This document shows, in pieces, positions 5,255-29,900 of a stretch of 64,000 nucleotides of DNA. The notes under the pieces were generated by a model. It did no database searches. It worked only from the letters and a program-made list of their open reading frames with translations, and was not told where the DNA came from. The stretch lies in assembly GCA_964540825.1 (NCBI GenBank), contig CAZINT010000004.1, positions 88,835-152,834 of the forward strand, written 5' to 3'. Each line of letters begins with the position of its first letter. Position 1 is the first letter of the stretch. The position numbers were made by a program, and so were the translations under genes. Origin of the DNA: an uncultured Gammaproteobacteria bacterium. Lineage in GTDB: Bacteria; Patescibacteriota; Patescibacteriia; Magasanikbacterales; GWA2-37-8.

Positions 5255-5263
5255 TAAATTTCT

Positions 5264-9133: not shown

Positions 9134-9134
9134 A

Positions 9135-10425: not shown

Positions 10426-10554
10426 CTTTCGGCTTACGTTAGCCACTCTGTAGAATAAACTTCAAAAATACATTCAGCCCCCGACCCCTTTCGTCCAAAA
10501 TGCGGTCGTCGGCTCATGATACTGCAAGCAGATTTTTGCAGTATTTTTTGTTCT

Positions 10555-11448: not shown

Positions 11449-11506
11449 CTCTATTTGCCAAATTCACCTCTTTGCCTTAGAATAGTTTAAAGTCTGTTTT
11501 CTTTCT

Positions 11507-12247: not shown

Positions 12248-12445
12248 CTGCCATGACAACCATAGACAGTGGAACCCTAAAAGCAAGTTACGCGGATTTT
12301 TCTAAATTCAACTCCAGCAGAAGCCCCGTAACAGGAAGCTTTCCTGGGAAAAATCTAGAGAGCACAAAAGACCACAACGCAGACTACAATGTTTTTAAAG
12401 GTTCTTATTCATACCCTATAAAAAGATCACGCTCAGAAAAAATCG

Positions 12446-13063
12446 TTGTGTATGTTCGCAAGCAAGATTAAGTCGCAATATATTAAGCTTAGAAAAAGCA
12501 GATTCTGCCAAGGTGACATACTCAGAGATATCTACATAAGTTTTGGCTCAGATCTGGGAGAATCAGACAAGAAGCAGCTTGAAAGACATTACTTGCCCTA
12601 CTGCATAATAATGACCCAAGATTGCGACCTTAACTCTGACCATGTAGAAAGAATAAAAAATAGGGGCCACGATAAATATTTGCAAGCGATTTTGCTATGC
12701 CCCGCTTATCAAGAAGATTTGTTTTTTGCTGGTACACATATAGAAAACTGGCAAATGCAACAAATGTCTTCAAAACTAAAAGATAGAATAAAAGAAAATA
12801 ATTATTTTGAACGGTACCACCACATTGAGGGCGATCACACATCTGCTATTCCAAATCTTGTAATTGATTTTAAGCATTTTTTTACCGTTCCTCGTGACTT
12901 AATTTATAAAGACCGAAAAAAAATCTATCTTATAACTCTAAATGAACTTTTTAGAGAGAGGTTGTCTCAAAGATTTGCCAACTACCTATCACGGTTTGGC
13001 TTACCAGATTTAAAAATCAGAACAGACAACCAAGCCCTCTCTGTTCCACAGGACTCCCCCTAG
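12446..13063 (+). CDS. Hypothetical protein (island cargo)
   Basis: 205-aa ORF with conserved-looking QGDIL and IIMTQDCDL motifs; upstream 72-aa ORF 12253-12471 overlaps by 26 nt in another frame (possible frameshifted single gene). Confidence 0.4.
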   Translation: MCMFASKIKSQYIKLRKSRFCQGDILRDIYISFGSDLGESDKKQLERHYLPYCIIMTQDCDLNSDHVERIKNRGHDKYLQAILLCPAYQEDLFFAGTHIENWQMQQMSSKLKDRIKENNYFERYHHIEGDHTSAIPNLVIDFKHFFTVPRDLIYKDRKKIYLITLNELFRERLSQRFANYLSRFGLPDLKIRTDNQALSVPQDSP

Positions 13064-13153
13064 AGAAATCCACATGTAAACAAGGGTTTGCCTAATTTAA
13101 GATTTAAAGGCTGTGCAGTCTTAAAATACCTCATTAAGGATGGGGTGTTTTTA

Positions 13154-13996
13154 TTATTGCACTACTGCAAAACGATAGGGAGGAAAGGGCTCTTCCTTGT
13201 TAGGATTTTTTATAATGGCTAGTGATGGGCCAGTCTTTAATAACAAAGAAAGTACGAGCACCTCGTGAGTAAATCCATTTATCTCATTAATTATTCTGTT
13301 TAAAAAAACACTTACTTCCTCTGGAGTAGAGCCATGAATAATATATTGAGGTGTTACCTGCTGCGTTACATGTTGAAAGGTTATATTCGAAACATTTTTT
13401 AAGCCTCCGTGATGTACAGGGGCATCTCTAAGCAATACTATATAAGAAATATATTCAATTCTATCCTCGATAAATTTTATTAAACTAATCGAGTTTAACT
13501 TGTGTCTTTCAGGAAGGTTGTTTTTTAATTGTTCTATTATACCTCGACCGCTCTCTTCCTTTCCGTTTTCCTTATTCTTTTGTTTATTCCAGCCTCTAAA
13601 TTTCAGATCAAATAAGGGATTAAAGGTCTTTGCTAAGGAATCTAGCGCAGCCTTAATTTGCGTTAAAACCGCATCAATTTCGCCATTTAAATCAGGTGAA
13701 TGCAAAGCCTGGTTCGTATTAGTTGGAGCATTTGAACATTTACTTTTAAAATCATTTATAACTTTTTCTTTCTGTAATAAATATTTTCTTCTATGACTAT
13801 TCGCTTTAAATAAAGCGTCGGTCACTCCTCTTACATGGTCAAAATATAAGTCATGTAATTTTTTATCTGCTAGTATAAAATCTCCTACCTGCAAGCCTAT
13901 TATCATACTTAGGGTGTTATCCAAAATTTCTTTGTCTAAAACATCCTGTGGTTCAAATAAGCTGGTTAATACAAAATTTTCAATTGGGTTTTGCAT
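13154..13996 (-). CDS. Hypothetical protein with R-x4-H-H-G-G (HEPN-like) motif
   Basis: 280-aa ORF; LLRDAPVHHGGL near C-terminal third; otherwise no recognisable domain. Confidence 0.45.
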   Translation of the reverse strand: MQNPIENFVLTSLFEPQDVLDKEILDNTLSMIIGLQVGDFILADKKLHDLYFDHVRGVTDALFKANSHRRKYLLQKEKVINDFKSKCSNAPTNTNQALHSPDLNGEIDAVLTQIKAALDSLAKTFNPLFDLKFRGWNKQKNKENGKEESGRGIIEQLKNNLPERHKLNSISLIKFIEDRIEYISYIVLLRDAPVHHGGLKNVSNITFQHVTQQVTPQYIIHGSTPEEVSVFLNRIINEINGFTHEVLVLSLLLKTGPSLAIIKNPNKEEPFPPYRFAVVQ

Positions 13997-14229
13997 AAAA
14001 TTTTAATTGTAGCTGTTGTGTAAATTAACTATTGCTTTCTTCTAGAGCATACAGTATTCTATATTTGCTGCCTATATTAATCAAAATAACCCTTTCACGG
14101 GCGACTGTTTCTATAGCCAATTGTGGCTAGAGATGGACAGTCGCACCTCCACAATTGGAGCCCGTAAGGGTTTTGATTAATGTGGGCAGCAGGTCGGCTG
14201 TCCTTTTTTATTTCAGCCCTTAAATACCT

Positions 14230-15183
14230 ATGTCTATTACAAAACTTAGTACCTGGCGAACTACATTAGGAATTGGTGTTGTTTTATCCCTACTTACTAT
14301 TGTAGGATGCGCGACCACGCCTACGTCCTCCATTGGTACGGATGGAACCTCGACCGCTATAGAGAATGATACCTTGTTGGCTGCAACCACAGCTAAAGTG
14401 GAATCTATAGATACCTCTAAGGATCAAAAACTGTCGGCCACAACGCCCACACAAACAAAAACTACGGATCAGCGAAAACCGACAACAGATACACCTACAA
14501 AACCGACCACTCCTCAGAACGATCTCTACACAGTTACCAAAGTCGTAGATGGCGACACTATCGACGTAACCAAAGATGGAAAAACCCTTCGTGTCCGGTA
14601 TATCGGCATGGATACCCCCGAAACCGTACATCCAAGCAAAGGCGTGCAATGCTTCGGTAAAGACGCTTCCAGCAAGAATAAGGAACTAATACTAGGTAAG
14701 CAGGTACGCCTTGAAAAAGATGTCTCTGAAACTGATCGTTACGGTCGGTTCCTCCGGTATGTCTATCTAGGTGACACTTTCATTAACTTAGAGCTAGTAA
14801 AGCAGGGTTACGCTACTGCCGCCACCTTCCCACCTGACGTTAAACACTCACAGGACTTCGTAGCAGCTGAGCGTGAAGCCAGAGAAGCCAAACGTGGCCT
14901 GTGGGCCTCCTGTAAGTCTACAGAGGCTACCAGCAGCCCTAAAACGACCACCACAAACCAACCAACCGCCTCAAATCCAACTCCGGCACCCACACCTACA
15001 TCTCCCACACCTAATGGCTGCACTATTAAAGGCAATATTAGTACTAGAAAAGAGAAAATTTATCACCTACCAGGGTGTGGCTCCTATACCAAGACTTCGA
15101 TCGACGAGAGTGCCGGAGAGCGTTGGTTCTGTACGGAGCAACAAGCGGTACAGGCGGGGTGGAGAAAAGCGGAAAACTGCTAG
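14230..15183 (+). CDS. Secreted lipoprotein nuclease, staphylococcal-nuclease (SNase/thermonuclease) family with YncB-type C-terminal domain
   Basis: Lipobox LLTIVGC, Thr/Pro-rich linker, SNase motifs [26 protein letters not shown]; C-terminal [23 protein letters not shown]...[21 protein letters not shown] as in Bacillus YncB. Confidence 0.8.
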
Positions 15184-15264
15184 AACACCATAAAATTATA
15201 GAGAAAAACAGGGCAAACACCCTGCTTTTTTCTTATTTAAAACATCTTAAAAGAATCATACTAT

Positions 15265-16557
15265 ATGATATACTCCTATCATATGAATGATCCAATTCGT
15301 CGTAAATTAACCGGGGAACTATCTATAAGCGCTGACTATAAAAATAACGAATCTACAAAATCTGTTGTTTTTCGTCGTTTAGTTGAAAAAAAATTTGTAG
15401 AAAGTATTCCCAGGGAAAAACTAGAGGAAATGATTCGGAACGATCTTAAAAAAGTTTCTATCACACCTGTAAATGGCATATTTAACGCTCACCAGTTATT
15501 TCACTATACTAATTCTGATTTTTTAAAAGATTTTGACTTTGGAAACACCTTGATTCAAGCTCATATACCATATTGCCTTCATTTTCCCAATCATTACGAA
15601 ATAATTGTAGATATTCCTGAAAAAAAACTAGAAGCCCTTGTTATCTTTGAAAAAATCTGGACGAGCCGCGCCCAAACAGAAGACAAAAAGTCAGATACCG
15701 TTGATTTCTTTGCGGAAGACTGCGTAACTTATTTTAAGGATAGTATTATCCAGACCCCTCAAATACCTTTATCCGCTCAAGAGGGGTGGGAGTCTCTTTT
15801 TACAGGAACGAACATAGAAAAAATGAGTGACCAGAACGGCATTTTTCGTTTTACAAGAGTTCTTATCCAGTTTGATACCAATTTTCCGCAAGATATGAAC
15901 CAGGGCGACTACAAATCTTTGTTGCCACGAGTCGAGGAAATAGCACTTACCGCTATTAACCGCGTAATTGATGTATATCGCGAGGTCACAAATGAATTTT
16001 TCATAAGAAGACTTGGAAGTTTAAATATAAATTTAATTTATTTTATTCCTAAGAATGAAGGTTTTTACCTACTTCCTACCAATATTGAAACAGCAAAGAT
16101 TAACCGATCAGGCAAAGAAATTGAAGAAATATCAGCTAAATTAGAGGCGGGACACAAACCAGAAGTTTACAAGTTACTTTTATTTAACGCATATAGTTCT
16201 TTTGAAACAAAGGATTACACATTGGCTATAGTAGAATCATTCCAGTCTCTAGAAATTTTTTTGGAAAATTATTTAGTAAATCTTTTCAAAGTAAAAAATA
16301 TTCATAAAAAAGAATATCGTAAAATCCTCAAAAAAAACTGGAAGACAAAAGATAGATTAACCGAAGTGCTCAAAAATCTTATTGGGGTGTCTCTCGATAA
16401 ACAACTAAATATTTGGCCTAAATGGTGTGCTCGCTACGATCAAACTCGTAACAGAGTAATACACGGAGGCAAAGAACCATCACCGTTAGAAACCAAGGAA
16501 ACACTGGAAATTAACCAGAAAGTTATTGAATGGCTAAACTCAATAACGACTAAATAA
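15265..16557 (+). CDS. Hypothetical 430-aa protein with C-terminal HEPN-like R-N-x3-H motif (candidate abortive-infection/toxin RNase)
   Basis: C-terminal WCARYDQTRNRVIHGGKEP fits the common RNxxxH HEPN signature; large uncharacterised N-terminal region. Confidence 0.45.
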   Translation: MIYSYHMNDPIRRKLTGELSISADYKNNESTKSVVFRRLVEKKFVESIPREKLEEMIRNDLKKVSITPVNGIFNAHQLFHYTNSDFLKDFDFGNTLIQAHIPYCLHFPNHYEIIVDIPEKKLEALVIFEKIWTSRAQTEDKKSDTVDFFAEDCVTYFKDSIIQTPQIPLSAQEGWESLFTGTNIEKMSDQNGIFRFTRVLIQFDTNFPQDMNQGDYKSLLPRVEEIALTAINRVIDVYREVTNEFFIRRLGSLNINLIYFIPKNEGFYLLPTNIETAKINRSGKEIEEISAKLEAGHKPEVYKLLLFNAYSSFETKDYTLAIVESFQSLEIFLENYLVNLFKVKNIHKKEYRKILKKNWKTKDRLTEVLKNLIGVSLDKQLNIWPKWCARYDQTRNRVIHGGKEPSPLETKETLEINQKVIEWLNSITTK

Positions 16558-16571
16558 CATCTTCAAATCAT

Positions 16572-17366
16572 ATGGTTGTAAATAGTCGTAAATTAAAAAA
16601 CGCTATCTCAAATAATATAAAAAATTACTTTGCCAAGGATAAAACGGTTTTTGATAACCTCAATTCCCTATTCAACCTTTTGTTTGACCACCCGGTTTAT
16701 ATTGAACGAGCTAAAAGGGTGCGGGGTATTTTTCTACTTCCAAAAGACACTGGCCTGTTGTCAGGTGAAGAAGCGTTGGTGTGGGAAAACGATAATGGAG
16801 ATAAATTAAAAAAATTGCGTGACGCCGTCACAAAACTCCTAACTGGTTTTGCTATTCCTGAGGCTTTTCGGGACCGTGTTTTTTATTTTACTTATGACTA
16901 TATTATATCTAAAAATAGCATCCTCTCTTTGTTAGTCGAAAATTTTGATAGCCCAAACCAGAAAGATGAGGGATACAAACGTGCCCCCAAACTACTTAGC
17001 TTCCGCACCGTTCACACCTTACCTGACCGTGAATTGAATAAATATTTGTTGGACACCAACGCCTTATACCTTCAAATAGGCCCTGGTATGAACTTAGCAA
17101 CACTGCAAAAAGTCTACACGGAAGTAATTATGAAAAATAAAGAACAGCTTTTACCGCTTGAGGCACCGAGTCCAGAGGAAAAAGCGCGACTGATCTGGCG
17201 CATGCGAATGGAAAAATTTAGACCTAAAAAAATTATTGAAGTTTTGAAGATAAAGTATATTCATGAGCCAATAAAAATCGACCACCACTTCGTCAAAACA
17301 AATACTTACCGCTACACCAAAGCACTTCAGACACTCAAGATGTTTGATCCAAAAAAGTATTTATAA
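16572..17366 (+). CDS. Hypothetical protein (island cargo)
   Basis: 264-aa ORF 14 nt after previous gene, followed by clean terminator. Confidence 0.45.
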   Translation: MVVNSRKLKNAISNNIKNYFAKDKTVFDNLNSLFNLLFDHPVYIERAKRVRGIFLLPKDTGLLSGEEALVWENDNGDKLKKLRDAVTKLLTGFAIPEAFRDRVFYFTYDYIISKNSILSLLVENFDSPNQKDEGYKRAPKLLSFRTVHTLPDRELNKYLLDTNALYLQIGPGMNLATLQKVYTEVIMKNKEQLLPLEAPSPEEKARLIWRMRMEKFRPKKIIEVLKIKYIHEPIKIDHHFVKTNTYRYTKALQTLKMFDPKKYL

Positions 17367-17367
17367 A

Positions 17368-17396
17368 AGAGCTTGCTAAAAAGCTCTTTTTCTTTT
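17368..17396 (+). terminator. Rho-independent terminator
   Basis: AAGAGCTT-gctaaa-AAGCTCTT followed by TTTCTTTT. Confidence 0.65.
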
Positions 17397-17500
17397 AACA
17401 AGTGTGCCAATATTTTTATCGGCTGATTTTTGTTACCCTAGGGTCAGTGTTTGCACGATAGCGACCACAATCTCATGTCCATAATGTCCTAGTTAAAAAT

Positions 17501-17965
17501 ATGCAGCCAAACGAAAAAGAGGACTTTGATTTAAAGTCGCTTGAAATTCAAGAGCGCAGACAAAAGGTCGAACAGTTTCATATTCAAGGCTTTTCTATCC
17601 TGCGGATGGCCCAAGAGTTAAAAGTAAACCCCCGAACCATTGTTCGCGACATTCAGGCGAACCGACAAGAACGGCTCTCTATGCTTGATGGGTACAGTGG
17701 AAGCATAGACTGGCTCCGTAACAGACTTGGTGATCACGTCAGTCTTATGGATAACGCCCGCTACCGCTTACTGCAAATTGCCGAAAACTCTACAGATGAC
17801 ATGGTAAAAGCTAAAGCCTTAAAACTCGCCACAGAGGTCGACAAAGACACTGTCGATACAGTTCTCAAACTTATGTGGTCGTTTAAAGATTTTATGTATG
17901 CTGGACCCTACCTTGCTAGACCTGTCGGCCTTAAAAAAGAGGACGGACTTCAGGAAAAAGCGTAA
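17501..17965 (+). CDS. Small HTH-containing protein (possible excisionase/regulator of the island)
   Basis: FSILRMAQELKVNPRTIVRDI helix-turn-helix-like segment; immediately upstream of second integrase. Confidence 0.45.
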   Translation: MQPNEKEDFDLKSLEIQERRQKVEQFHIQGFSILRMAQELKVNPRTIVRDIQANRQERLSMLDGYSGSIDWLRNRLGDHVSLMDNARYRLLQIAENSTDDMVKAKALKLATEVDKDTVDTVLKLMWSFKDFMYAGPYLARPVGLKKEDGLQEKA

Positions 17966-18132
17966 ATTTTCCCTTTCCTTGAAGCCGCCTTATAAAAACA
18001 TTTCTGAATGTCCGCCAGAGAAAAAGACTGATTACCTATTCTATCTGTACTTACGTGGCATGCAAACCGGCAGCGGACCGGATGTTAGAAGGTTTCTTGC
18101 AGCCACTAATCAATTGCCAGAAAAAAAATCTT

Positions 18133-19083
18133 ATGACTCACAGCCTACAAGAACTGCATAAACAATTTATAAGGGAAAAAGAACTGGTTGATGAGTTTCG
18201 GCCTGCAACTTCAACAAATCATCGGGTAACTCTTGATTTACTATTAAAATTTAATCCTGCTATAACCCTAGCAGATCTAACCTATACTACTATGCTTGAT
18301 TTCTTTCAATTTCTAAAAAAACGCACAAGATTAGTTAGCGGAAGTGCTTCCAAACAAGGAGTTAAAACATCGACCTTAGCCACCCATTACGGAAAGCTGA
18401 ACACCTTTCTTAAGTGGCTTATCGTACACAACCACTTAGCGGAGAATCCTTTAAAGGACATCCCCTACCCCGAACCTGATTATAGTGATCGTCGGGCTTT
18501 AGACGAAAGTGAGTTGGCAAAAATTTTCGGCGCACTAGAGCACGGCATTGCCTACACCGATCTTTTTCGAAAAAAGCGTGACGCTGCTATATTTGCGGTA
18601 CTGCTTGGATGCGGCTTACGAAAAAATGAGCTTGTTAATCTCAGACTTATTGATATCAATCTCGAAAAACGTGAGCTTCGTGTGCGAAAGGAAACTTCTA
18701 AATCGAAAAAAGATCGTCATGTAGGTTTGAATTCAGACGTCACCATGCGTCTTGAAGATTACCTAAAAGCCCGCAGTGAAAAAGGCTACCAAAATGAATA
18801 CTTGTTTGTTTCCACAACTCATGACAATAGGTTTACAGCTAACGGTTTGAAGCACCTGATTCAAAGAGTCATCAGCGCTTCTGGGGTAAAATTTCACCCT
18901 CACCGTTTCCGCCACACCTTTATGTGGAACGCTGTACGTGCCGGAGTGCATATTGTTAAAATTCAACAAATGATGGGACACAAAGATCTACGCATGCTTC
19001 TTACCTATGCTCGTGGTATGCCTGCTAACAGTATGCTTGGTGATATGGAGCGAATACATCAGCAGCACTTCTATAGAAAATAA
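18133..19083 (+). CDS. Tyrosine-type site-specific integrase/recombinase (island integrase 2)
   Basis: HPHRFRHTFMWNAV...GH...LLTYA catalytic signature; ORF opens at 18055, 18133 Met gives typical length. Confidence 0.85.
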   Translation: MTHSLQELHKQFIREKELVDEFRPATSTNHRVTLDLLLKFNPAITLADLTYTTMLDFFQFLKKRTRLVSGSASKQGVKTSTLATHYGKLNTFLKWLIVHNHLAENPLKDIPYPEPDYSDRRALDESELAKIFGALEHGIAYTDLFRKKRDAAIFAVLLGCGLRKNELVNLRLIDINLEKRELRVRKETSKSKKDRHVGLNSDVTMRLEDYLKARSEKGYQNEYLFVSTTHDNRFTANGLKHLIQRVISASGVKFHPHRFRHTFMWNAVRAGVHIVKIQQMMGHKDLRMLLTYARGMPANSMLGDMERIHQQHFYRK

Positions 19084-19265
19084 TTGCTTTTCTGCCATGA
19101 ATTTGATACTTTACAGATACTTTATTCAGCAAAAACTGCACGCATTTCACCGAGTCAGTTTGGGCAGAGAAGCGGTCGCGGGCACTGATGTAAATTCGAG
19201 TAAAATTCTACACTATTTTATCTCAACCAAGCCATGAAACCCATGTATTGGGACCGGTTGAATTG

Positions 19266-19309
19266 ATGGCATGGAAGAGGTCAAGGGTTCAAGTCCCTTA
19301 AGGTCCACA
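19266..19309 (+). repeat. attR: 44-nt copy of tRNA-Ala 3' half (direct repeat copy 2)
   Basis: Exact match to 10382-10425, followed by the tRNA's original terminator. Confidence 0.85.
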
Positions 19310-19335
19310 AAAACGGTATGCATACCGTTTTTTTA
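19310..19335 (+). terminator. Rho-independent terminator (original tRNA-Ala terminator)
   Basis: AAAACGGTATG/CATACCGTTTTTTT perfect hairpin plus U-tract. Confidence 0.75.
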
Positions 19336-19401
19336 TTTTAGTTTATAACTAAACGTAAATTTTAAGCATTAAGGAGAGCTCTATACGGCCGTACCACTTG
19401 T

Positions 19402-19430
19402 TTGACACTACGAATTAAAACTGTCATTAT
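19402..19430 (+). promoter_or_regulatory. Sigma70-type promoter (TTGACA-17-CATTAT) for GC-rich lipoprotein gene
   Basis: TTGACA at 19402-19407, 17-nt spacer, CATTAT at 19425-19430; AAGGAGG RBS at 19464-19470. Confidence 0.5.
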
Positions 19431-19476
19431 CCCAACAGCCTCTCGGCTTTTTTGCCGAAAAATAAGGAGGAACACC

Positions 19477-19923
19477 ATGCGTTCACAGACGAGCTTGTTG
19501 TTGGTCGTCGTGGCACTTCTTGCCTCCGCCTGCACGCCGCAGCTGCAGGTTCGGGACCCCCGCCCGGAGATGAGGTCGGGCACGGTCTTCATGGCTGCAC
19601 AAGCCATGGCCGTGATGCCGATCAAGTTCGTCCCTGCTCCGCTGCCCTCCAAGCCGGGCATGTCCTACGCGTTCGATCTGAATGACGGCTTCGGAGAGCG
19701 CACGCTGCGCTGCCCAGGGAGCTACTCGCTCCGGGTGGCGCTCCGGCGCCTGGACGAAAAGGATGATCGTCAGATCGTCTATCCGCCCACTCGCGACACG
19801 AGAGGGCAAACCTCGATCACGATCGACCCCGTCCGTGCCAAAGGAGTGTATCCGGGAGTGCAGGTCGCCTACCTGGTCGACTGCATGATCCCGCCGCCTC
19901 GCGTGGCGACCCGAACGCCCTAA
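19477..19923 (+). CDS. Putative lipoprotein, strongly GC-rich gene (compositional outlier)
   Basis: AAGGAGG-6nt-ATG; signal/lipobox MRSQTSLLLVVVALLASAC; GC-rich third codon positions unlike neighbours. Confidence 0.55.
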   Translation: MRSQTSLLLVVVALLASACTPQLQVRDPRPEMRSGTVFMAAQAMAVMPIKFVPAPLPSKPGMSYAFDLNDGFGERTLRCPGSYSLRVALRRLDEKDDRQIVYPPTRDTRGQTSITIDPVRAKGVYPGVQVAYLVDCMIPPPRVATRTP

Positions 19924-20008
19924 CACCGCCCCCCCCCTTATTCCGCCATCCCTCGTCCGTTCCTATTCCAGGACGCGGGATGGCGTGTTATCTACTTTTT
20001 TCAAAAAA

Positions 20009-20040
20009 CAAAACATCTTTGCATTTGCAAAGATGTTTTT
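20009..20040. terminator. Bidirectional terminator between GC-rich gene and giant protein gene
   Basis: AAACATCTTTGCA-t-TGCAAAGATGTTT perfect 13-bp palindrome with flanking A/T runs. Confidence 0.6.
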
Positions 20041-20045
20041 ATGTT

Positions 20046-23000
20046 TTATGGCGTGCTGGTTGGCGTCTCACTTTCCTCCGCCACGGACGGCGTTGAGCTT
20101 GCATCACTGGGCGGGGCTCCATCGAGCGCTGCGGTTGAAGAAGCCACCTCGACAACTGGTGTTTCCGCGGGAGAGGCGTCTAGCGTAGTCGTTGAAACGG
20201 TTTCAGGAACAGGATTACTTTTATTTTGATCTCGCCGTTTAGCGACCACAATCCAGTCAAACGTAGCAGTGCCAGCACTACCGTCAATTTCCCTTACCAC
20301 AAAACCTTGAGCTGATTTTTCAGCAACATAGACGCCCTTTGAGCCTGCTGAGGTAAGCGTCACCGTTACTTTAAGCGGCTGAGCCTGGTCAATAATATCC
20401 TGCGTTCCTTGATCGAAGACAATGCGTGCTTCGCCCGCGACAAGTGCGGACGAACTCGAGAAGACAAATTCTGATGTGGGCGACTGAACAGCAAACATAT
20501 CTTGCGTCCCGACCGATGTAGTAAGATGTGTTATAAAATGCCCCTCAGCATCAATAGACCATTTTTTATCTTTCGAAGTAATTGCCGCAACATTCAAAAG
20601 CACATGGCCTTGCAGGTTTAAATCACCGCCTTGATACATTAATTGTCCTTTTGGTGCTTCAACTTTCAAGTCATTACCACCATTTGCAAGATCAATGCCT
20701 TGAGCTGTTGCGAGCTGTTCTAGGTTAGTTTGGAGCGAGGTAATATTTTTGTTTTGTGAGTAGGCCCAACCGGTTCTAATGAGCGCGGGGATTTTTCCTT
20801 CGGTTCCACTGAAGGGGTCAAGCGCAATACCAATCACCCCAACCATCTTTTGGCTGTTATCAAGTGTGGGATCGTATTTCATCGCGTAGCCGGGTTTCGA
20901 CGATGCCACAAGAAGATCTCCGCGATTAATCAAACCATTTTCATTAACTACTTTAACCGGCACACGGCCAACCATAGCAAGCACAGCGGTAGTATCGGTT
21001 TTGCCCCTGCCTACCACGATGGTTGGGTTGGTTGAAATGACACCAGCAACTGCCACATCGTATGCCGCACCGCTGCGGCGATAGGTGTCCGGACTATTTG
21101 GGTCAACAATCATAACATCCCCAGCTTCAGCAATATCGTCAGCAGCTATATCTACACGTTCAGCTAAATCGCCGGGATTAGTCGAGGATCCAAAGGTTGC
21201 GCTCGCACCATAATAATTTCCCACGGTATTAACGTCACCATTAGCTGCTACGGAGAAAACCGGCGTGTCGTGCGCTCGGAGTGAAAACACAATTCGATCA
21301 GGCGTACTGGTTGGCGCAAAATTTGCGGCATTTAAAATAAACGCCCTAGCATTAGCAAAATCGCCCACATTTGAAGTTAAAAGACTACTTGTGGCAAACG
21401 AAATGGTATTGAGCGATGTCGAGAGGAGCGACAAGTTACCGTTGAGTGCAAAGTTATACGGCGTTGTTGAACTGCCGACAATAATATTCTTATTTTCCGT
21501 ATCAATGGTAAGTGTTTGGTTGAGGTTGCTCGTTGCCGCAGCGGACGAATCAATATTTACAAAGGTCGTAATCGTACCGCTGCCATTACCGGTAAAGTTT
21601 TCCATCGCAATACCAATAGTTGGCTGACCTGCCACAGCCTTAACCGCAACACCTGAAATTGACGAAGCGGAAAGTTTGTCCCCAACAGTAATTGGGCCGT
21701 TAAGGCTAGAAACAACTAAAGGCACGCGACCAGCCAAGGCCAGCGAGACCATTTTGGTTCCACTTGCAAAAACCGCGTCCTCCGGCCCCCACTCTGTCAG
21801 CAGCAGACCAGGTTTAGTCGAAACGATACCAATAGCGTGCGGGTGATCTTTAATATCAGCTTTTACTACTCGATTAGGATTATTTTTATCAAGCGCAACA
21901 ACATCACCTGGTTTTAAGGTTGGATCATCTGTCAGATATGATTCAGCTAAATCAAACCCGGAAAGATATGCTTGTTTGGCATAAATTTCTTGAGAATAGA
22001 TCTTATAAAAATACTGCCGTGAGTTACCGAGTGAAGTGCCTGAAAGAGCCGTTGTCGTCCTGCACCCGCCATTATCGAAATCATTGTCTGAGCACCCCTG
22101 CCACATCATCAGGTCTCCGGTGTCTGATTTGTAGTAAAAAGCAGTGAGGACACCGGCACCACTACGAACTAAAGACAGACCCTTGGTGTAATTAAAGGGG
22201 TCTGGCGACCCAAAAGGAAGTTGTGAATTTGTTCCTGAATAACAATTTACGCTGCCGCAGGAATAAATAAAGGGGTCGGTATCTGAATCAGTTATACGCT
22301 TTAAAAATGCAACTGCAGGTATTCCTCTACTGTCTATAGCAATACTTGGCCACGCCCCCTGGCTGCTCGTATGGTTTCCAACGGAAAGTGAGGTCTGTGA
22401 GATATTTGAACAAGCTGCGCTTTGACACGGACCAAAATACACGTTTGCATCTCCGTCATCATAGTAAGCTAAAAAAGGAACGCTTAACCCGCCAGGGCTT
22501 CCGGATTGGAAACCTCCATCAGCTTTGGCCATGCCAAGAGTAATATAACCACCTTCGTTTCCAACGTTATTGTCAATGGTATTGCCAAAAGAAAATGACG
22601 CACAGCGGATTGCTTGACAGTGAATCATCTTGATGGCGTTATTATTATCCTTAAACGCTATAAGTGGTGTGCCGTCTGAGGCGATAACCATTTTGATATA
22701 AGGATCAGTAGCGAGACTGGTTGACAGCGTAGAAGAAGCATCAAAGGCCGAACAATCCTCAGCAGTACAGTGTTTAAAAAGCAGATTATTTTCTGTTGAA
22801 TTTTGGTATGCTACTACCGGCATTCTATCCTGACCAACCGCTACTGCACTATATTTTCCATTATCCGAAAAAGTATCAAGCGTTCGGATACTAGCGGTAC
22901 TACAATCAACACTATAGCATTTCGCTAATTTAAGTTTTTGGTTAGTCGCATCATAATAAGTAAGAATCGGATACCCATCCGCACTGATGACCATAGAGGG

Positions 23001-26000
23001 ATTCTTACCGACATCCCCGGTCGAATCCAGGACTACTTCCGTATGAGAAGAACAGTTTTGAACACTACAGTGCATGACTATAAGATCAGCATTAGTAATG
23101 TCGTAATACGCAACAACCATAAGGTTATCACTGCCAACAACGGCAACTGGATAAGCGCCCACATCGTTTGTGGACACTAAAGTGCTTGAAGTACTTGTTG
23201 CGTTGCCTGCAATAGCGGTTGACGTAACGACACCGCTCAAAGGTACGATATTGCCCGCAATTTGGAGCGTACCGGAGCTAAAGATATTCCCGCTGCTATC
23301 AATATAAAGCCGACCAAGAGCATAAGCAGTGCTTGTATTAACCACAACCGCGGAAGTACGAGTAAATGTAGTTGTTGCCGAAAAAGTATTAAAACCAGTA
23401 AAATTTTGATCAGCTGTCAAAGAGGCTACATTAGCACCTCCGCCACAACCACTGCACGAGCCTACTGTAAGCGTTCCGATATAACCACTCGTTACATTTA
23501 AATTTTGAATGGTTGAACTTGCTGCTGTTGTGGTTGTAAATGTAGACGTTGCACTTACCCCGAGTGTTCCGGCAACATCTAATAAATTTACTGGCGCGCC
23601 AGTACCAATCCCCACATTGCCGCCAAAAATACCCAGCGTGTTTGCTTGGGATATAAAACCTGAAGCACCTCCGAGCCCAAAGCCAATTGAGTTAGTTCCG
23701 CCGCCGGTAATGGTCATATTTGTCCCAAGGGCAATTGAGTTGTTGCCTAGAGCGTGCGCTCCATTACCAAGCGCAATGGACGTGTCACCCCCAGCTTCAC
23801 TGCCAAAACCAGCTGCAAAAGCATTTTGATTCGTTACCGAGTTGCTACCGCCAAATGCAGCGCCATTATTTCCCGAAACGCTATTGCTTGCCCCCACCGC
23901 AATACCACGATCACTAACAATATTATTAAAACCAGCTGCAAAAGCATCACCCCCACTTGCAGTATTCCCCGTACCAAACACAGCCGAAGTATTTCCACTC
24001 GCTTTATTATTAAGGCCAAAAGCAACTGAATAATTTCCGATATTAGCATCGTCCCACTGTGTATTATTAACCGAACCAGCCCGAAACGCCGCTTTGTTTG
24101 GCACCCACATCAAACGAACACCTGCTCCATCATACGGTGTGACACCCGCCTCTCCAAGTGTGCCGATCGCCAAAATCGCCCCGTCTTTTATGGTAAATTT
24201 TGCCACCGGTGTTGAAGTGCCCACGCCAAGGCCACCGGAAAAGGAAGAGGTGGCGCTAAAAATATTTGAACCGGTAAATGTCTGATCAGCCGAGAGTGAT
24301 GCGCCTCCACCAGCCGAACAGCCTGTACACGTTCCAGTGACAACTAAATTGGTAATATTAGCCCGGGTGATCGAACTGCTGGCCATTGTAGTAGTGGTAA
24401 AAGTTGATGTACCCGTTACTGCAAGTGTACCGCCCACTGTCAAAAGTGAACTTGGAGTCAGTGTGCCGATACCAACATTACCGCCCATAATCGCTAACGT
24501 ATTGTTTTGGGAAAGCGTGCGAGAATTTGTATCAAGACCAATACCAACCGAATTATTTCCACTCACCGAAATTCTTGAGCCAAGCGCAATTGCCGAGGTT
24601 CCACCGGCGCTATTATTGGCACCGATCGCCGTAGAACCGGTGCCACCTGCAGAGGTATTGCCTGTACCGATCGCTGCTGCCGAGCTTGCGCCGCTCACCG
24701 TGTTGCTCAAACCAGCTGCAAAACCACCGCCGCCGCCATTAATAGTATTGCTCGTTCCAAAAGCAGCTGAGTAGGTTACTGTGACGTTATTACTGCCACC
24801 AAAAGCAACTGAGCCAGTTTGAGTAACCGTATTGCCGGTTCCACCTGCAAATGCCCTATCACCTGACACCTGATTATTTTCGCCAAAAGCAGCTGAATAA
24901 ACTCCGATATTTGCCGCATCCCACTGCGCCCCATTTATATAGCCCGCTCTAAAGGCGGCTTTGTTCGGAATCCACATAAGCCGCGTACCTGCACCATCAT
25001 ACGGAGTTGTACCTGCCCCGCCAAACGTTCCGACGGCCAAAACCGCTCCTTCACTCACCGTTAGCTTGGCTACTGGTGTTGACGTTCCCACACCAAGCCC
25101 AGCGCTAAACGAAGACGTCGCGCTAAAAACATTGGCACCAGTAAAGGTTTGGCTTGCCGATAACGACGCACCACTCGCTGCACAGCCAGTACACGTACCA
25201 TTTATAACTAAATTGGTAATATTGGCATTCGTAATGGTTGAACTGGCAATAGTCGTAGTTGTAAACGTGGTCGTAGCACTGAATACATTTAGGCCTGTAA
25301 AAGTCTGATTACCTGCTAAATACCCTAGCACGCCTGTGCCCCCAATGCTTGCTAAATTAATACCGCTTACCGTTCCATTAACTACCAAGTTGGAAACATT
25401 TGCATTGGCAATACTTGAACTAGCTATAGTAGTGGTGGCAAACGTCGATGTCGCACTAAAGGTATTGAGGCCAGTAAATGCTTGGGTATTGCCGAGATAT
25501 GCCAAAACACCCGTCCCAAAAATACTTCCGAGAGAAATGCCACTTACCGTACCGTTTACCGTTAAATTAGTGATGTTTGCAGTGCCGATTGTCGAACTGG
25601 CAACTGTTGTTGTGCTAAGTGTTGTAGTAGCGTTAAAAGTGTTTAAACCATTAAATATTCCTGAACCATTAACAACTAAACTATCCGCGGTCAGAGCATT
25701 AATACCGGTAATATTGTTACCTCCAAGCATTAAATTGCCGGCGAGCGTTCCGCCGGCGAGCGGTAAATAGTTACTTGCCGTGATAGAATCAGCCACCATA
25801 GCATCAGTAATACTGTTCGAGGGTAAAGAAACCGACCCATTAACCGTTAAGGCAACAATATTCGCACTATTTATAGTACTGCTAGCAATGGTAGAGGTTG
25901 TAAAAGTAGTCGTAGCATTAAAAACATTGGCCCCAGCAAAAGTTTGTGAATTAGCAAGGTAGGCCAAAACACCGGTACCACCAACACTCCCTAAATTTAG

Positions 26001-26828
26001 GCCGGTCAATGTACCTGTCAAATTTAAATTATTAATCGAAGCATTCACTATAGTAGCGGTGGTAATCGTTGAACTTGCCGCTGTTGTTGTTGTAAAGGTC
26101 GTAGTAGCACTAAACGTATTAGCGCCCGTAAAAGTTTGCGTACCGGCAAGCGACGCGTCACCTGTTCCTGACCCACAGCCCACACAACTACCGGTTACTA
26201 CCAGATTAGTAATATTTGCATTCGTGATCGAAGAACTTGCCGCAGTTGAAGTAGCCAGTGTCACAAAACCGGTACTGGTAACATTGGTGAACCGAAAACC
26301 ACCTTGACTGTCTGACAATGGAATATACACCGAACTTGACGCCGTATTTAAACCGTAGCCATTTAAAAAACCCGCATTAATAGCATAGGGGCTAGCCGTA
26401 ATTTGCTTGCGCGGCGTCAGGACTTCAGCACCTACCACAAGCTGCAGGTATATCCCTGAATTATTTCTAAAAATACCCGGATCAAGCGGGTTCGTACCCG
26501 CCCCGCCTAAATCCACACTAAATATACCGCTTGAGGGCGTAATACTGAGCGCAGCCGGAGTCGCTACTGTACCAGCCGCGGTGTATAACAAATTACCTGC
26601 AGTAGCAGCATCGTAAAGTAAAAACTGAATGTTAAGTGCTGTATCGATTGGTGTATTGGTGCTATCTAAAATTTTGCCTTGGTACGTTACTATTGAGGGT
26701 GGCGCCGCCGGGGCAGCACGTCCAATTTGAGAAAACAAAAAAGCTCCTACAAAAAACAAAAACAAGCCAATGAAGAAGAATTCCCGGCGCACGCGAACGG
26801 AGTGAGTCTCTCTATTTTTTACATTCAT
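20046..26828 (-). CDS. Giant repeat-rich surface protein (2260 aa) with N-terminal signal anchor, beta-helix/tail-fibre-like repeats
   Basis: Single uninterrupted ORF; N-terminal hydrophobic segment FFFIGLFLFFVGAFLF; ~40-aa Thr/Ser-rich repeats (TFTGANxFSATTTF...SSTIxNANITNL), YadA-head-like SxAxG runs, CxxC 'AYYD' repeats, duplicated C-terminal beta domain; paralogous to 26909-32371. Confidence 0.85.
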   Translation of the reverse strand: MNVKNRETHSVRVRREFFFIGLFLFFVGAFLFSQIGRAAPAAPPSIVTYQGKILDSTNTPIDTALNIQFLLYDAATAGNLLYTAAGTVATPAALSITPSSGIFSVDLGGAGTNPLDPGIFRNNSGIYLQLVVGAEVLTPRKQITASPYAINAGFLNGYGLNTASSSVYIPLSDSQGGFRFTNVTSTGFVTLATSTAASSSITNANITNLVVTGSCVGCGSGTGDASLAGTQTFTGANTFSATTTFTTTTAASSTITTATIVNASINNLNLTGTLTGLNLGSVGGTGVLAYLANSQTFAGANVFNATTTFTTSTIASSTINSANIVALTVNGSVSLPSNSITDAMVADSITASNYLPLAGGTLAGNLMLGGNNITGINALTADSLVVNGSGIFNGLNTFNATTTLSTTTVASSTIGTANITNLTVNGTVSGISLGSIFGTGVLAYLGNTQAFTGLNTFSATSTFATTTIASSSIANANVSNLVVNGTVSGINLASIGGTGVLGYLAGNQTFTGLNVFSATTTFTTTTIASSTITNANITNLVINGTCTGCAASGASLSASQTFTGANVFSATSSFSAGLGVGTSTPVAKLTVSEGAVLAVGTFGGAGTTPYDGAGTRLMWIPNKAAFRAGYINGAQWDAANIGVYSAAFGENNQVSGDRAFAGGTGNTVTQTGSVAFGGSNNVTVTYSAAFGTSNTINGGGGGFAAGLSNTVSGASSAAAIGTGNTSAGGTGSTAIGANNSAGGTSAIALGSRISVSGNNSVGIGLDTNSRTLSQNNTLAIMGGNVGIGTLTPSSLLTVGGTLAVTGTSTFTTTTMASSSITRANITNLVVTGTCTGCSAGGGASLSADQTFTGSNIFSATSSFSGGLGVGTSTPVAKFTIKDGAILAIGTLGEAGVTPYDGAGVRLMWVPNKAAFRAGSVNNTQWDDANIGNYSVAFGLNNKASGNTSAVFGTGNTASGGDAFAAGFNNIVSDRGIAVGASNSVSGNNGAAFGGSNSVTNQNAFAAGFGSEAGGDTSIALGNGAHALGNNSIALGTNMTITGGGTNSIGFGLGGASGFISQANTLGIFGGNVGIGTGAPVNLLDVAGTLGVSATSTFTTTTAASSTIQNLNVTSGYIGTLTVGSCSGCGGGANVASLTADQNFTGFNTFSATTTFTRTSAVVVNTSTAYALGRLYIDSSGNIFSSGTLQIAGNIVPLSGVVTSTAIAGNATSTSSTLVSTNDVGAYPVAVVGSDNLMVVAYYDITNADLIVMHCSVQNCSSHTEVVLDSTGDVGKNPSMVISADGYPILTYYDATNQKLKLAKCYSVDCSTASIRTLDTFSDNGKYSAVAVGQDRMPVVAYQNSTENNLLFKHCTAEDCSAFDASSTLSTSLATDPYIKMVIASDGTPLIAFKDNNNAIKMIHCQAIRCASFSFGNTIDNNVGNEGGYITLGMAKADGGFQSGSPGGLSVPFLAYYDDGDANVYFGPCQSAACSNISQTSLSVGNHTSSQGAWPSIAIDSRGIPAVAFLKRITDSDTDPFIYSCGSVNCYSGTNSQLPFGSPDPFNYTKGLSLVRSGAGVLTAFYYKSDTGDLMMWQGCSDNDFDNGGCRTTTALSGTSLGNSRQYFYKIYSQEIYAKQAYLSGFDLAESYLTDDPTLKPGDVVALDKNNPNRVVKADIKDHPHAIGIVSTKPGLLLTEWGPEDAVFASGTKMVSLALAGRVPLVVSSLNGPITVGDKLSASSISGVAVKAVAGQPTIGIAMENFTGNGSGTITTFVNIDSSAAATSNLNQTLTIDTENKNIIVGSSTTPYNFALNGNLSLLSTSLNTISFATSSLLTSNVGDFANARAFILNAANFAPTSTPDRIVFSLRAHDTPVFSVAANGDVNTVGNYYGASATFGSSTNPGDLAERVDIAADDIAEAGDVMIVDPNSPDTYRRSGAAYDVAVAGVISTNPTIVVGRGKTDTTAVLAMVGRVPVKVVNENGLINRGDLLVASSKPGYAMKYDPTLDNSQKMVGVIGIALDPFSGTEGKIPALIRTGWAYSQNKNITSLQTNLEQLATAQGIDLANGGNDLKVEAPKGQLMYQGGDLNLQGHVLLNVAAITSKDKKWSIDAEGHFITHLTTSVGTQDMFAVQSPTSEFVFSSSSALVAGEARIVFDQGTQDIIDQAQPLKVTVTLTSAGSKGVYVAEKSAQGFVVREIDGSAGTATFDWIVVAKRRDQNKSNPVPETVSTTTLDASPAETPVVEVASSTAALDGAPPSDASSTPSVAEESETPTSTP

Positions 26829-26908
26829 ACATAGCTCAAAAATCTGGCTAATTGATTTTTGCCAGTCGAAATGAGCTTAAGGGACTATACCACAAAATTA
26901 AAATTTAC

Positions 26909-29900
26909 TTAAGGGTTTGAAGCGGAAGCATCGGCGGGCGTGCTGCTGGCGGCAACATTTAAAACTGTACTCGTACTTTCAGGGGACGGCCCACTGGTAA
27001 TTTCCGGATTCTGGGTGCTAAAGTTAGCTGAATCCATACTTTCCACCGTACTCGTTACTGCGCCTGAATCTTCGTCGGCATTTTTAGAAAAATCACTCGG
27101 CGCTTCGGGCGCAGGCATTGCTTCTGACGGCGGAGTGATTAAGTTATCAACAGGCGTAGTTGGAACAAGCCAATAATCAAAGGCCACATCTTCTTCTGCG
27201 GGAGTATCCAGCATAATTGTAAATGCACCCGCCTCCTTGTTTGAAACCCACCAAAAATGCTTGGGGTTATTTACGAAGGTGACAAAAATCTTAGTACTGG
27301 TGGTAAATAGACTGTTTTCCACTCGAACACTTGATTCGCCATTATTAATTGTTGCTTGTCCGATAGTTGTTTTGCTTTGATCTGAATTTGGCGTAATAAC
27401 AAGTTGTTTGGTGACAACCTGGTCGGCAGTCAATTTTTTAACACGGGCATTTCCTTGTTCGTCAATTTCCCAAGCATTATTCACGCCCTGAACCCGACCC
27501 ACCGCCAGAAGCGCGCGGCCCCCGAGCGATAAATCTTTAGCCAAAGTAATACGGCCTTCTTCGCTTGTGACGCTCATTGTTTCTACGTTTGCACTAAGAT
27601 TTTCGCTATTAGTGCCGGCCAAACTATCCACCGTTGCCTGTAAATCTGTTAGGGTCTTGGTCTGGCTATAGACCCAGCCGGTGCGGATCAAGGCGGCGAT
27701 TTTGCCTTGTTCTGCAGTAAGCGGATCGAGCGCAATACCAATGATACCAACCACTTTCGAACTTACATCAAGCGTTGGATCATACTTCATGGCGTAACCT
27801 GGGCGCGACGAAGCCACCAGCAAGTCACCACGCTGAATTGAGCCGTTTTCGTTAACCACTTTAACCGGAACACGACCGACCATCGCCAAATTTGCCGTAT
27901 AATCAGTTTTGCCTTTACCTACCACGATTGTTGGATTACTGGAGATTACCCCGGCAACAGCGCTGTCATACGAAGTGCTGCTGCGGCGATAGGTATCCGG
28001 ACTGTTGGGGTCAACAATCATAACATCCCCTGCTTCCGCAGTATCGTCGCTGGCAATATCTACTCTTTCAGCCAAATCCCCCGGGTTCGTTGACGAACCA
28101 AAGGTAGCACTGGCCCCATAGTAATTGCCGACCGTGTTTACGTCGCCGTTTGCAGCAACCGAAAATACCGGCGTATTATTTGAACGCAGTGAGAAAAGAA
28201 TGCGATCAGAGGTGCTTGTCGGCGCAAAATTCGGCGCATTAAGAATAAAGGCCTTGGCATTTTCAAAATCCTGAACATTGGCCGCAAGAAGCGTGGTGGT
28301 CGAGAATGATACTTTTACGATTGACGGATCAACCACAGACAGGTCGCCGTTTAAGACAACTGAATACGGCTCAGTTGATGTGCCAAAGGTAATAGAGTGG
28401 TCTGTGCTATTCACTGTGAGTCCTTGGTAAATATTACCAGATGATCCTGAATCAAGGTTTACAAAAGCCGTGATAACCCCGGTCGTACTACTTACAAAAT
28501 TATCCATTGCAATGGCAACAGTTCTTTTGCCGGTCGCTCGAGCTGCTGTACCTGGCGTATCAGAAAGTTCCAAACGGTCACCTACATGAATGTCACCATG
28601 GCTTGAATTAACCTTTACCGGTACACGTCCGGACAGCGCTACCGGAACATGGAAGCCGCCCGAACTGCTGTTTTTCCATTCTGACAAAAGTAAACCCGGC
28701 TCAGTTGATACAATCCCGATTACTTCATCAGCCGCAACCGCTCGCCGTACATACCCCGGACGCTCCGGATCAAACGCCACAACGTCCCCCGCGCCGAGTG
28801 TTGGGTCGCTCGTAGGGTAATCTTCGGCCACGTCAAACGCTGCAACCTGAAATCTTTTCCCAAGAAACTGATTGGCAAAAACATTATTGAAGTAAGCTCC
28901 TGCACTGCCCAAGTTTTGTCCGCCGCTAACTACCTGCGTGCTTGTAGCAATACAATCAATATCAGCACACCTTAAAAAATTAAGTTTTGAATTCCCGTAA
29001 TATGCCACTATCGGCAAACCATCGGCTCCTATCGCCAAGCTGTTGCCGTAACCTGTAGCCGATGCGCCATCAAGCAGTGTTGATGTGGACCCGTAGTTGC
29101 AGTTCGCTTCACCGCACGTATAGGCAAAGAGCTTAAAAGTGGTAGTCGCCGACTGATATACCGTAATAACACGCCCGTCAACACCAACTTTAATTGAATT
29201 ATAAAAACCCGGAAAAGGTACGTTGGAGTCAACTTCTTGGCCGGCTGCGCTGCCGCTTGTACAGTCTGCAGCGTTACATTTAAAAATAAGAAAACGATTA
29301 AAAAAGCTTTCCCGATAACTTATAACCGGGAAGTTATCGTTTCCGATGGTCATGGAAATAAACCTTCCCGGATCGCCGGTAGTATCCAGTGTAGTAATAA
29401 AAATTTTGCTTGTTACAGTACATGACGGTTCACCACATCTAGCAAAAACAACTGAATCATTTGTTGCGTTATAATAAGCCATTACCGGTCTTCCGTCCGT
29501 TGGAATTGCCAGCGTTACCTGTTGCCCTACATTGGACCCTGAGGTATCAACTCCCGTATCTGTTCGAGTGTTGCATGACAGATCGAGACAATGAATAAAC
29601 CTAACATCCGCATTGGCATCGTCGTAATAAGCAATCGCCGGCAAACCATCCTTGCCGACAGCAAGCGATAAATATGAACCTCCGAAATTTACGAACGAAT
29701 TACCTATACTAACAATATCTCTTGAGGAACAATCTAAGTTTGTACAGTGATAGAAGTTAATTCTCTGCCGAAAAGAATCGTATATAGCAACCGCTGGAAA
29801 ACCGTCTGATCCAACCACGGCTGAGACATCATTACCGCCTGCATCACCACCAAAAAGCGTGTTCTGTGTCGCAATTGTAGCACAAGTAACGTCAGCACAT

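Follow-up and report, generated by a model that had tools for sequence, protein, structure and literature searches.

The window analysed here is a 64-kb stretch of a 185,663-bp NCBI contig, and its subject is a set of GC-rich genes, the cargo genes, that stand in sharply bounded tracts ("islands") among genes of ordinary composition. Judging from its genes, the organism is a member of the Patescibacteria (Candidate Phyla Radiation, CPR) and Magasanikbacteria-like; the nearest species representatives of its RmuC (46220-47314), at 72-75% identity, are Candidatus Magasanikbacteria and other Patescibacteria. Window GC is 45.5%, so that the genome, which a preceding sequence-only reading had called AT-rich, is only moderately so. 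A 400-nt profile shows sharp GC peaks of 59-65% at the positions named in that reading, and two-change-point maximum-likelihood fits give six tracts of 59-69% GC, with GC at third codon positions (GC3) of 0.68-0.84. These are tract 1 at 19503-19985 (65.8% GC, flanks 44.9%), tract 2 at 41215-44034 (58.9%, flanks 37.9%), tract 3 at 45517-45938 (69.2%, flanks 40.1%), tract 4 at 47324-47847 (63.0%, flanks 40.6%), tract 5 at 59900-60319 (66.7%, flanks 48.7%) and tract 6 at 60613-60793 (65.7%, flanks 42.5%). Composition is not uniform along the window, and the six blocks first proposed by eye are borne out almost base for base.

The edges of the tracts follow the genes closely. At the 5' side they fall on the start codon or slightly inside it, with the exception of a 97-aa gene at 60461, where the tract begins about 150 nt inside; at the 3' side they lie 38-65 nt past the stop codon, immediately ahead of an AT-rich terminator hairpin. 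Tract 1, for example, has its first base 26 nt inside the focal coding sequence (CDS) at 19477-19923 and its last base 62 nt past the stop. The blocks are therefore bounded by genes, as had been claimed, in that their edges lie near start and stop codons, but not for the 97-aa gene, nor at the 3' ends, which run beyond the stop. In many cargo genes the 3' untranslated region (UTR) is rich in C and poor in G (C 0.37-0.53, G 0.16-0.21), as at 19924-19985, 45517-45557 and 60282-60319 and in their counterparts in related genomes. These regions look like Rho-utilisation sites and have no sequence motif in common.

Cargo genes display a strong three-base GC periodicity, in the order GC3 > GC1 > GC2, by 0.2-0.4; GC1/2/3 is 0.64/0.50/0.79 in the focal CDS, 0.64/0.43/0.84 in apt and 0.63/0.42/0.76 in prs. 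This is the pattern of genuine coding sequence from a GC-rich genome. Most native genes of the window have a GC3 of 0.33-0.50, the outliers being an integrase at 10516-11448 (0.61), a DoxX gene (0.55) and four AT-rich genes at 11507-17366 (0.26-0.39) that belong to an integrative island described below. Cargo proteins contain far more arginine than lysine (15 R and 4 K in the focal protein), in contrast to native proteins, where lysine prevails (445 K, 220 R). When outliers are defined by GC above the median + 0.12 and GC3 above the median + 0.20, they make up 6 of the 50 open reading frames (ORFs) in the window, against 6 of 1196 across 80 other CPR loci. This lineage is strongly enriched in such outliers.

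The focal gene (island 1, 19477-19923, plus strand, 64% GC) encodes a 148-aa lipoprotein precursor. It would be transcribed from a promoter with a TG extended -10 element at 19402-19430 (TTGACA-17-CATTAT, plus strand), which by alignment is retained at the corresponding locus of a sister genome (L006), and translated from the Shine-Dalgarno (SD) sequence AAGGAGG at 19464-19470. Position 19402, with which the range first reported begins, belongs to the -35 hexamer; the start codon itself is at 19477, downstream of the SD site. The 5' UTR (19437-19470) contains, besides the SD site, a small hairpin (CUCGGC/GCCGA) that is kept in L006, in a leader whose predicted fold of -12.1 kcal/mol (z -1.1) is not significant alone. 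A GC-rich hairpin with 15-nt arms (19944-19985, plus strand) closes both the C-rich, G-poor 3' UTR and the tract, and an AT-rich bidirectional terminator at 20010-20039 is shared by the focal gene and the convergent gene for a 2260-aa surface protein. The latter is one of two adjoining giant surface-protein genes (2260 and 1820 aa, 20046-32371, minus strand) with many internal repeats, which against the sister genome have 72-77% nucleotide identity over the aligned parts, the 2260-aa protein being 85% identical in amino acids.

The N-terminus of the focal protein, MRSQTSLLLVVVALLASAC, is a predicted signal peptide ending in LASAC, which we take to be a lipobox. When 1.84 billion representative proteins were scanned with HMMER, the one relative to match over its full length was P0014 (145 aa, E 9e-20), in which Cys19 is invariant; the other matches were short and against repeats of large proteins, one of them a PKD/FlgD_ig protein (P0013). 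A word-based search returned the self-match only, and no Pfam family matched. The two proteins align over their full length, with lipobox and cysteine pairs conserved. Behind Cys19, the focal protein has a low-complexity linker, and its C-terminal region is all-beta and contains the conserved pair C79 and C136. A profile of both proteins weakly matches immunoglobulin (Ig) light chains (E 0.008), and an AlphaFold2 model from the two-sequence alignment, unreliable at a predicted local distance difference test score of 44, is all-beta over residues 62-137. The product is probably a small lipoprotein of the cell surface that carries a single Ig-like domain, a fold suggested by this remote similarity.

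Localisation and role we infer from these features: the protein would be exported and probably lipidated at Cys19, displaying a disulfide-bonded Ig-like domain on the cell surface. Its fast evolution (42% identity to P0014, where core proteins of both genomes reach 83-96%) would fit a role at a host or phage interface. Synonymous sites between the genomes are near saturation, however, and a weakly constrained protein would reach 42% identity, so that this value needs no hypermutation. Neither lgt nor lspA lies in the window, and a Peptidase_A8 (LspA) gene was seen in a relative (L090). The earlier impression that several cargo genes encode secreted proteins or lipoproteins is supported for two of nine only, which carry signal peptides: the lipoprotein of island 1 and a Sec-type protein of island 4.

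Island 2, by family assignment, is a purine-salvage operon (NTPase-Prs-Apt, minus strand). Its adenine phosphoribosyltransferase (apt, 41280-41831, 183 aa, GC3 0.84) passes a curated equivalog cutoff (NF002636, 172.7 bits against 125) and matches Apt chains in the PDB at 8e-39. The ribose-phosphate diphosphokinase (prs, 41848-42915, 355 aa, GC3 0.76) scores 198 bits against a cutoff of 113 for TIGR01251 and has the N-terminal and phosphoribosyltransferase domains (PF13793, PF14572, PF00156). The third protein, an inosine/xanthosine triphosphatase-like member of NTPase_I-T/DUF84 (42950-43459, 169 aa), matches PF01931 at 2.3e-21, with all NCBIfam matches below cutoff. Together they would provide synthesis of phosphoribosyl pyrophosphate, adenine salvage by Apt and a nucleoside triphosphatase of the inosine/xanthosine triphosphate type to a bacterium that is probably salvage-dependent. 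The operon promoter (43620-43592, TTGACA-17-TATAGT) is followed downstream by a leader hairpin with 27-nt arms (43476-43530), both on the minus strand, and upstream of the operon lies a gene for an 88-aa Cys-rich, zinc-ribbon-like protein (43801-44067, minus strand, GC3 0.79).

Two TrmB paralogues, 29% identical to each other (39911-40630 and 44241-45020), bracket island 2, and a free-standing, single-motif LAGLIDADG endonuclease gene of 34% GC (40714-41073) adjoins the 3' end of apt. The operon has a patchy distribution: no Prs match falls between 63% and 100% identity, and the two closest relatives appear to lack the operon. It does recur beside an orthologous TrmB (72% amino acid identity) on L091, a more distant CPR contig of 40.7% GC, where identity to the window is 62% for Prs, 31% for Apt and 33% for the NTPase. 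Beyond L091, Prs has no relative above 47% identity, the next ones being CPR and DPANN proteins. GC3 climbs from 5' to 3' along the operon in both genomes, in the window toward the LAGLIDADG gene.

The remaining islands are made up of single genes. Island 3 (45558-45956, minus strand) encodes a 132-aa orphan between tRNA-Arg and rmuC, and island 4 (47389-47844, minus strand) a 151-aa secreted orphan with a Sec signal between rmuC and rpsT. Island 5 (59892-60281, plus strand, tract 59900-60319) encodes a 129-aa helical orphan, of which another sample has a variant at 96% identity. Island 6 (60461-60754, plus strand, tract 60613-60793) is a 97-aa mosaic gene whose first approximately 150 nt are lysine-rich (40% GC, GC3 0.45) and whose remainder has 60% GC and a GC3 of 0.74, a pattern suggesting that native and foreign-type sequence meet within one reading frame. 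No Pfam, PHROG or PADLOC family matched the proteins of islands 3-6. Across all cargo, PHROGs and PADLOC returned only Prs, one weak family of unknown function (the 88-aa gene), a weak ShosT match, and ThsB for a TIR gene of the sister genome. In a strain from another sample (L107), 15 of its 27 substitutions relative to the window fall within 165 nt (59888-60052) at the start of the island-5 gene, with five amino-acid changes, whereas the island-6 gene equals the window copy save for the last base. Such clustering points to local recombination or diversifying selection.

Of the seven transcription units, five have a consensus-like sigma-70 promoter and an SD site in front, and several of these promoters carry a TG extended -10. 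Besides those of islands 1 and 2, they are found at 46115-46087 for island 3 (minus strand, TTGACA-17-TATGCT with TG), 59767-59795 for island 5 (plus strand, TTGACA-17-TATATT with TG) and 60411-60439 for island 6 (plus strand, TTGACA-17-TATGTT with TG); a terminator at 60369-60398 follows island 5. The expectation of such signals before every block holds for these five, but island 4 shows just a weak TTGACA-18-TACATA by eye, and no promoter was found for the 88-aa gene. Upstream of island 3, a resident shell (45957-46115, minus strand) comprises the promoter, a 5' hairpin with a U-run and a long SD-sequestering hairpin. This leader folds at -54.4 kcal/mol (z -5.8), and its counterpart in the sister genome (L088, 1068-1250) has a z of -5.6 with different arm sequences, so that the architecture is the same in front of an unrelated gene. 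It belongs to no Rfam family and may be a translational control element.

The intervals that hold these genes are shared by related genomes. In the sister genome GCA_964510495.1 (loci L006 and L088), the gene for P0014 sits in the same slot as the focal gene, tail-to-tail with the orthologue of the 2260-aa surface-protein gene; core proteins share 83-96% identity between the genomes (65% in one case), against 42% for the focal pair. Promoter, leader hairpin and signal-peptide codons align in this slot, whereas the mature part has 48-49% nucleotide identity as counted from the alignment. The sister copy is itself GC-rich (60% GC, GC3 0.73) among neighbours of 43-47% GC. The slots between tRNA-Arg and rmuC and between rmuC and rpsT (slots 3 and 4) contain GC-rich genes (57-65% GC) in L088 and in a further relative, L089, too. 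Their flanks have 66-88% nucleotide identity, yet Smith-Waterman comparison with shuffling detected no residual homology between the cargo of the window, L088 and L089. Slot 3 keeps its promoter, its structured SD-sequestering leader and a 3' GC palindrome in L088, with similarity ending at the ATG, while in slot 4 the promoters differ between relatives as well; the products of most slot-4 genes are secreted proteins or lipoproteins. GC-rich cargo is lacking from both slots in L090, a relative at greater distance (RmuC 83%). The comparison of sibling genomes called for at the outset thus yields a divided answer: close relatives share GC-rich slots, which L090 lacks, but their cargo differs.

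A further site of exchange lies just upstream of the focal gene. An integrative island of 8.9 kb (10350-19309) occupies tRNA-Ala(GGC) between perfect 44-nt direct repeats (10382-10425 and 19266-19309). Tyrosine recombinases stand at both ends (10516-11448 and 18055-19083), and the cargo is AT-rich, at 30-37% GC, and includes a staphylococcal-nuclease homologue (14230-15183). In L006, the same tRNA-Ala adjoins instead a gene for a 568-aa, ThsB-like TIR protein (4991-6697, minus strand; PADLOC 3e-15), and GC-rich genes follow the tRNA there. With a GC3 of 0.97 this gene looks like a very recent import, but its protein has ordinary lysine and arginine contents (K 29, R 35). The site, on present sequence comparisons, marks a hot spot of horizontal gene transfer (HGT). 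The public gene calls took an antisense ORF of 593 aa at this position, and the TIR protein is thus absent from the protein collection.

Cargo genes share a compositional signature. By GC-normalised dinucleotide distance (delta*), the cargo of three genomes differs among itself by 55-74 and from native sequence by 170-256, whereas native sequences differ from one another by 32-58 and 5-kb native samples by 48±16. In delta*, GC1/2/3 and amino-acid usage, the cargo resembles genes of a genome of about 63-67% GC. A high-GC donor, as had been proposed, agrees with the foreign-type codon-position GC, the arginine-rich proteins and the dinucleotide signature, but neither a donor nor an outside relative of the focal protein was found among the 1.84 billion representatives.

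Our preferred reading, to which we give even chances, is that foreign-type accessory genes turn over in recombination and HGT hot-spot slots, supplied by a reservoir that has not been sampled. The best-supported form of this reading is that turnover outpaces speciation within the genus and that expression proceeds from resident or co-transferred AT-rich promoters. The shared signature, the recent TIR import and the patchy Prs operon favour horizontally mobile cargo at hot spots. HGT is documented in Patescibacteria, mostly from CPR to CPR, and both islands and singly transferred genes are known (PMC12455944). Our literature search for GC-rich islands in CPR found nothing specific.

The six tracts sit in a few fixed core-gene gaps, or slots, of one genus-level Magasanikbacteria-like lineage. 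As to donor and mode of entry, we infer that GC-rich genes arrive repeatedly from the reservoir, and that related strains may then swap cargo by homologous recombination through the conserved flanks. Copies would be retained only behind a working AT-rich sigma-70 promoter and SD site. In slots 1 and 3 a resident shell (promoter, 5' leader and terminator) is conserved between relatives, while the coding part and 40-65 nt of 3' UTR are GC-rich and are replaced or strongly diverged; in slot 4 the entire unit, promoter included, differs in a moron-like manner.

Several observations weigh against turnover from an outside reservoir. In slots 1 and 3, homology halts at or near the start codon and restarts shortly past the stop, and illegitimate insertion is not expected to give such start-to-stop breaks repeatedly. 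Same-slot homologues also hold a GC content at four-fold sites (GC4) of 0.66-0.80, despite neutral sites near or at saturation. The searches are a further difficulty. The cargo signature occurs in none of more than 80 CPR loci (minimum delta* 105), no donor was identified, and the focal family is confined, among the 1.84 billion representatives, to the same slot of two sister genomes. All 18 recorded cargo proteins (20 were looked up) stand alone in their 90% clusters, apart from same-locus copies or close strain variants. IMG/VR scans with island 1, prs, islands 3, 4 and 5 and the TIR gene returned nothing, and tblastn of the relatives' cargo against phages and plasmids gave nothing or just distant TIR and Apt similarity. 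A JGI metagenome scan with the focal alignment was likewise empty, and one anchored on the neighbouring giant protein recovered distant relatives only, with no focal homologue or GC-rich neighbour.

The persistence of high GC is central to the choice between explanations. At core four-fold sites, the window and the sister genome are 41.4% identical (n=2563), where 25.8% is expected at random, and under an F81 model a GC excess should have shrunk to 0.46 (0.43-0.49) of its original value in each lineage. Focal GC4 is 0.80 in the window and 0.66 in the sister; with an equilibrium of 0.47, ancestral values of 1.18 and 0.88 would be needed. For island 2, GC4 is equal in the window and L091 (Prs 0.75/0.74, Apt 0.78/0.78), although the four-fold sites of the adjacent TrmB are saturated between them (0.29). 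GC4 kept beyond saturation implies either repeated replacement from a GC-rich pool or a GC-maintaining force in place. As first put, the idea of acquisition with little amelioration is therefore not supported, both in view of these homologues and in view of slot cargo that differs between close relatives. The alternative offered with it, unusual selection on these genes, is still a possible one.

The second of these options, that cargo genes are long-term residents made or kept GC-rich by a locus-restricted process, is the main rival, possible though in our view less likely than not. Candidates are GC-biased gene conversion at recombination or double-strand-break hot spots, here hypervariable surface-protein loci and the flank of a homing endonuclease, and selection on the DNA or RNA of the cargo. 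It would account for the ancestral GC4 above 1 required by the focal gene, the equal GC4 of Prs and Apt beside a saturated TrmB, the GC3 gradient along the operon in both genomes, regulatory shells conserved right to the ATG and the lack of outside homologues, and a single process would likewise yield one signature across all cargo. It explains less well that slot-3 and slot-4 cargo differs in length (132, 207 and 272 aa) with no residual similarity, that slot-4 promoters differ too, that L090 has empty slots and that the operon is patchy among close relatives. The differences between the window and L107 show no evident GC bias, on 15 sites only. Biased conversion would also have to produce a shift of 20 GC points (30-40 at third positions), for which we know of no bacterial precedent. 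The stricter claim that GC is made and kept in place and not imported at all, with fast-evolving accessory genes held at 60-67% GC in a 45% genome, strikes us as unlikely; its agent might be strongly GC-biased gene conversion at such hot spots or something that targets whole transcription units, while promoters, leaders and terminators stay AT-rich.

Less probable still is a single old acquisition of each island from a very GC-rich donor, followed by slow, ordinary amelioration. The composition is of foreign type, an ancestral GC4 of about 0.95 would have decayed to approximately 0.69 (0.47 + 0.46 x 0.48), near the 0.66 of the sister, and the TIR gene with its GC3 of 0.97 indicates that such donors do reach the lineage. 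But the window value of 0.80 (n=93) lies about 2.6 standard errors above that expectation, and for Prs and Apt even the upper bound is too low, provided that their history is that of the adjacent TrmB. Cargo of slots 3 and 4 is, moreover, unshared between close relatives, and no donor-side relatives turned up. We consider this history improbable.

It is barely credible that the tracts are structured GC-rich non-coding RNAs whose ORFs are chance products of stop-poor sequence. Overlapping ORFs do occur on both strands of every tract, and the TIR gene of L006 was called on the wrong strand. For islands 1 and 2 the proposal is ruled out by the three-base periodicity, the full-length alignment of the focal protein with P0014 and the curated families matched by Apt, Prs and the NTPase. 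Across the window, only four tRNAs reach the Rfam gathering score and none of the tracts does; the sub-threshold matches within 19200-20100 are noise.

The weakest alternative, an assembly or binning chimera in which GC-rich reads of another organism were joined in, deserves practically no credence: we found no evidence for it, it is effectively ruled out by independent assemblies, and 12 false joins, every one returning to the same syntenic genome, are implausible. Logan assemblies of SRR11567520 and SRR11567528 reproduce islands 2, 3, 4 and 5 with both edges and native flanks at 100% identity to the window. A contig from another sample (SRR12901024, strain L107) carries islands 5 and 6 at 97.1% identity over 59858-61003. 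Three related genomes, from other samples and assemblers, have GC-rich genes at the same positions, and one of these relatives (L089, identical to JGI L108) was assembled separately by Logan and JGI with identical outcome. On this point the sequence-only reading, which had argued against chimerism, was right.

The cargo has housekeeping genes for neighbours: ychF, tRNA-Ala, tRNA-Arg, rmuC, rpsT, holA, polA, a H+-pyrophosphatase gene and the trigger factor gene tig. The 3'-terminal 27 nt of tRNA-Arg(CCT) (45150-45176) recur 125 nt downstream, at 45275-45301, between the two tRNA genes; this repeat may be the scar of an integration at tRNA-Arg. One Logan contig stops 7 nt upstream of the second copy (window position 45268), and the contig carrying island 3 places it between tRNA-Arg and rmuC. 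Type IV pilus genes pilB, pilC and pilM lie at 671-4673.

About one-sixth of the genes in this assembly-verified 64-kb stretch form a class set apart by composition, with surface lipoproteins and a purine-salvage operon among its members. The class occupies fixed slots, uses resident promoters and differs between sister genomes. CPR bacteria are tiny and host-dependent, with host contact and the salvage of nutrients attributed to their accessory genes. If the cargo is imported, its shared signature offers a handle on an unsampled partner or mobile reservoir. If, instead, GC is maintained in place, the slots would argue strongly for a locally acting, GC-biasing force in bacteria and would present something like isochores on a single-gene scale.

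Among known systems, three can be set aside. The focal gene resembles the content of a tRNA-linked integrative island in lying 168 nt past attR at tRNA-Ala(GGC), but it is outside the 44-nt repeats, the island is AT-rich, and no integrase or transposase lies inside any GC-rich tract, both recombinases belonging to that island. Integron cassettes are rejected, since there is no attC and the units are dispersed, each with its own promoter; no k-mer is common to seventeen cargo 3' regions beyond what shuffles give, and the slot-3 palindrome occurs once in the window. Nor is the focal gene a target of a diversity-generating retroelement: it has no repeat within 9000-21000, and its sense strand is not A-depleted relative to T. 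No reverse transcriptase domain was present among 27 window proteins scanned, a set with only a minority of the core genes of 20-57 kb.

Phage morons, in the concept of Hendrix and Juhala, are compact promoter-gene-terminator units of atypical composition, variably present between conserved genes. Islands 1, 3, 5 and 6 are likewise single-gene units with their own promoter and terminator between conserved genes. Unlike morons, they stand in a CPR chromosome among housekeeping genes, with PHROG matches limited to Prs and the weak one of the 88-aa gene; the promoter and leader of slots 1 and 3 are resident, and all cargo is GC-richer than the host genome. HGT hot spots between the core genes of a chromosome, as reportedly described by Oliveira et al. 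2017, share with the slots the placing of accessory genes in a few core-gene intervals, often by tRNAs, with turnover between close relatives. The slots differ in that they hold single genes or one operon free of mobility genes, with one non-native signature and no identifiable donor.

The low-GC O-antigen (rfb) clusters of enterobacteria are compositionally atypical, hypervariable surface-antigen loci, and they resemble the slots in their fixed position, diverged or non-homologous alleles, lasting atypical GC and surface-exposed products. Here, in contrast, GC is high, the genes are small and single, and cytoplasmic proteins and salvage enzymes share the composition. Set beside these systems, the GC-rich islands are a real, somewhat unusual variant of horizontally acquired gene units.

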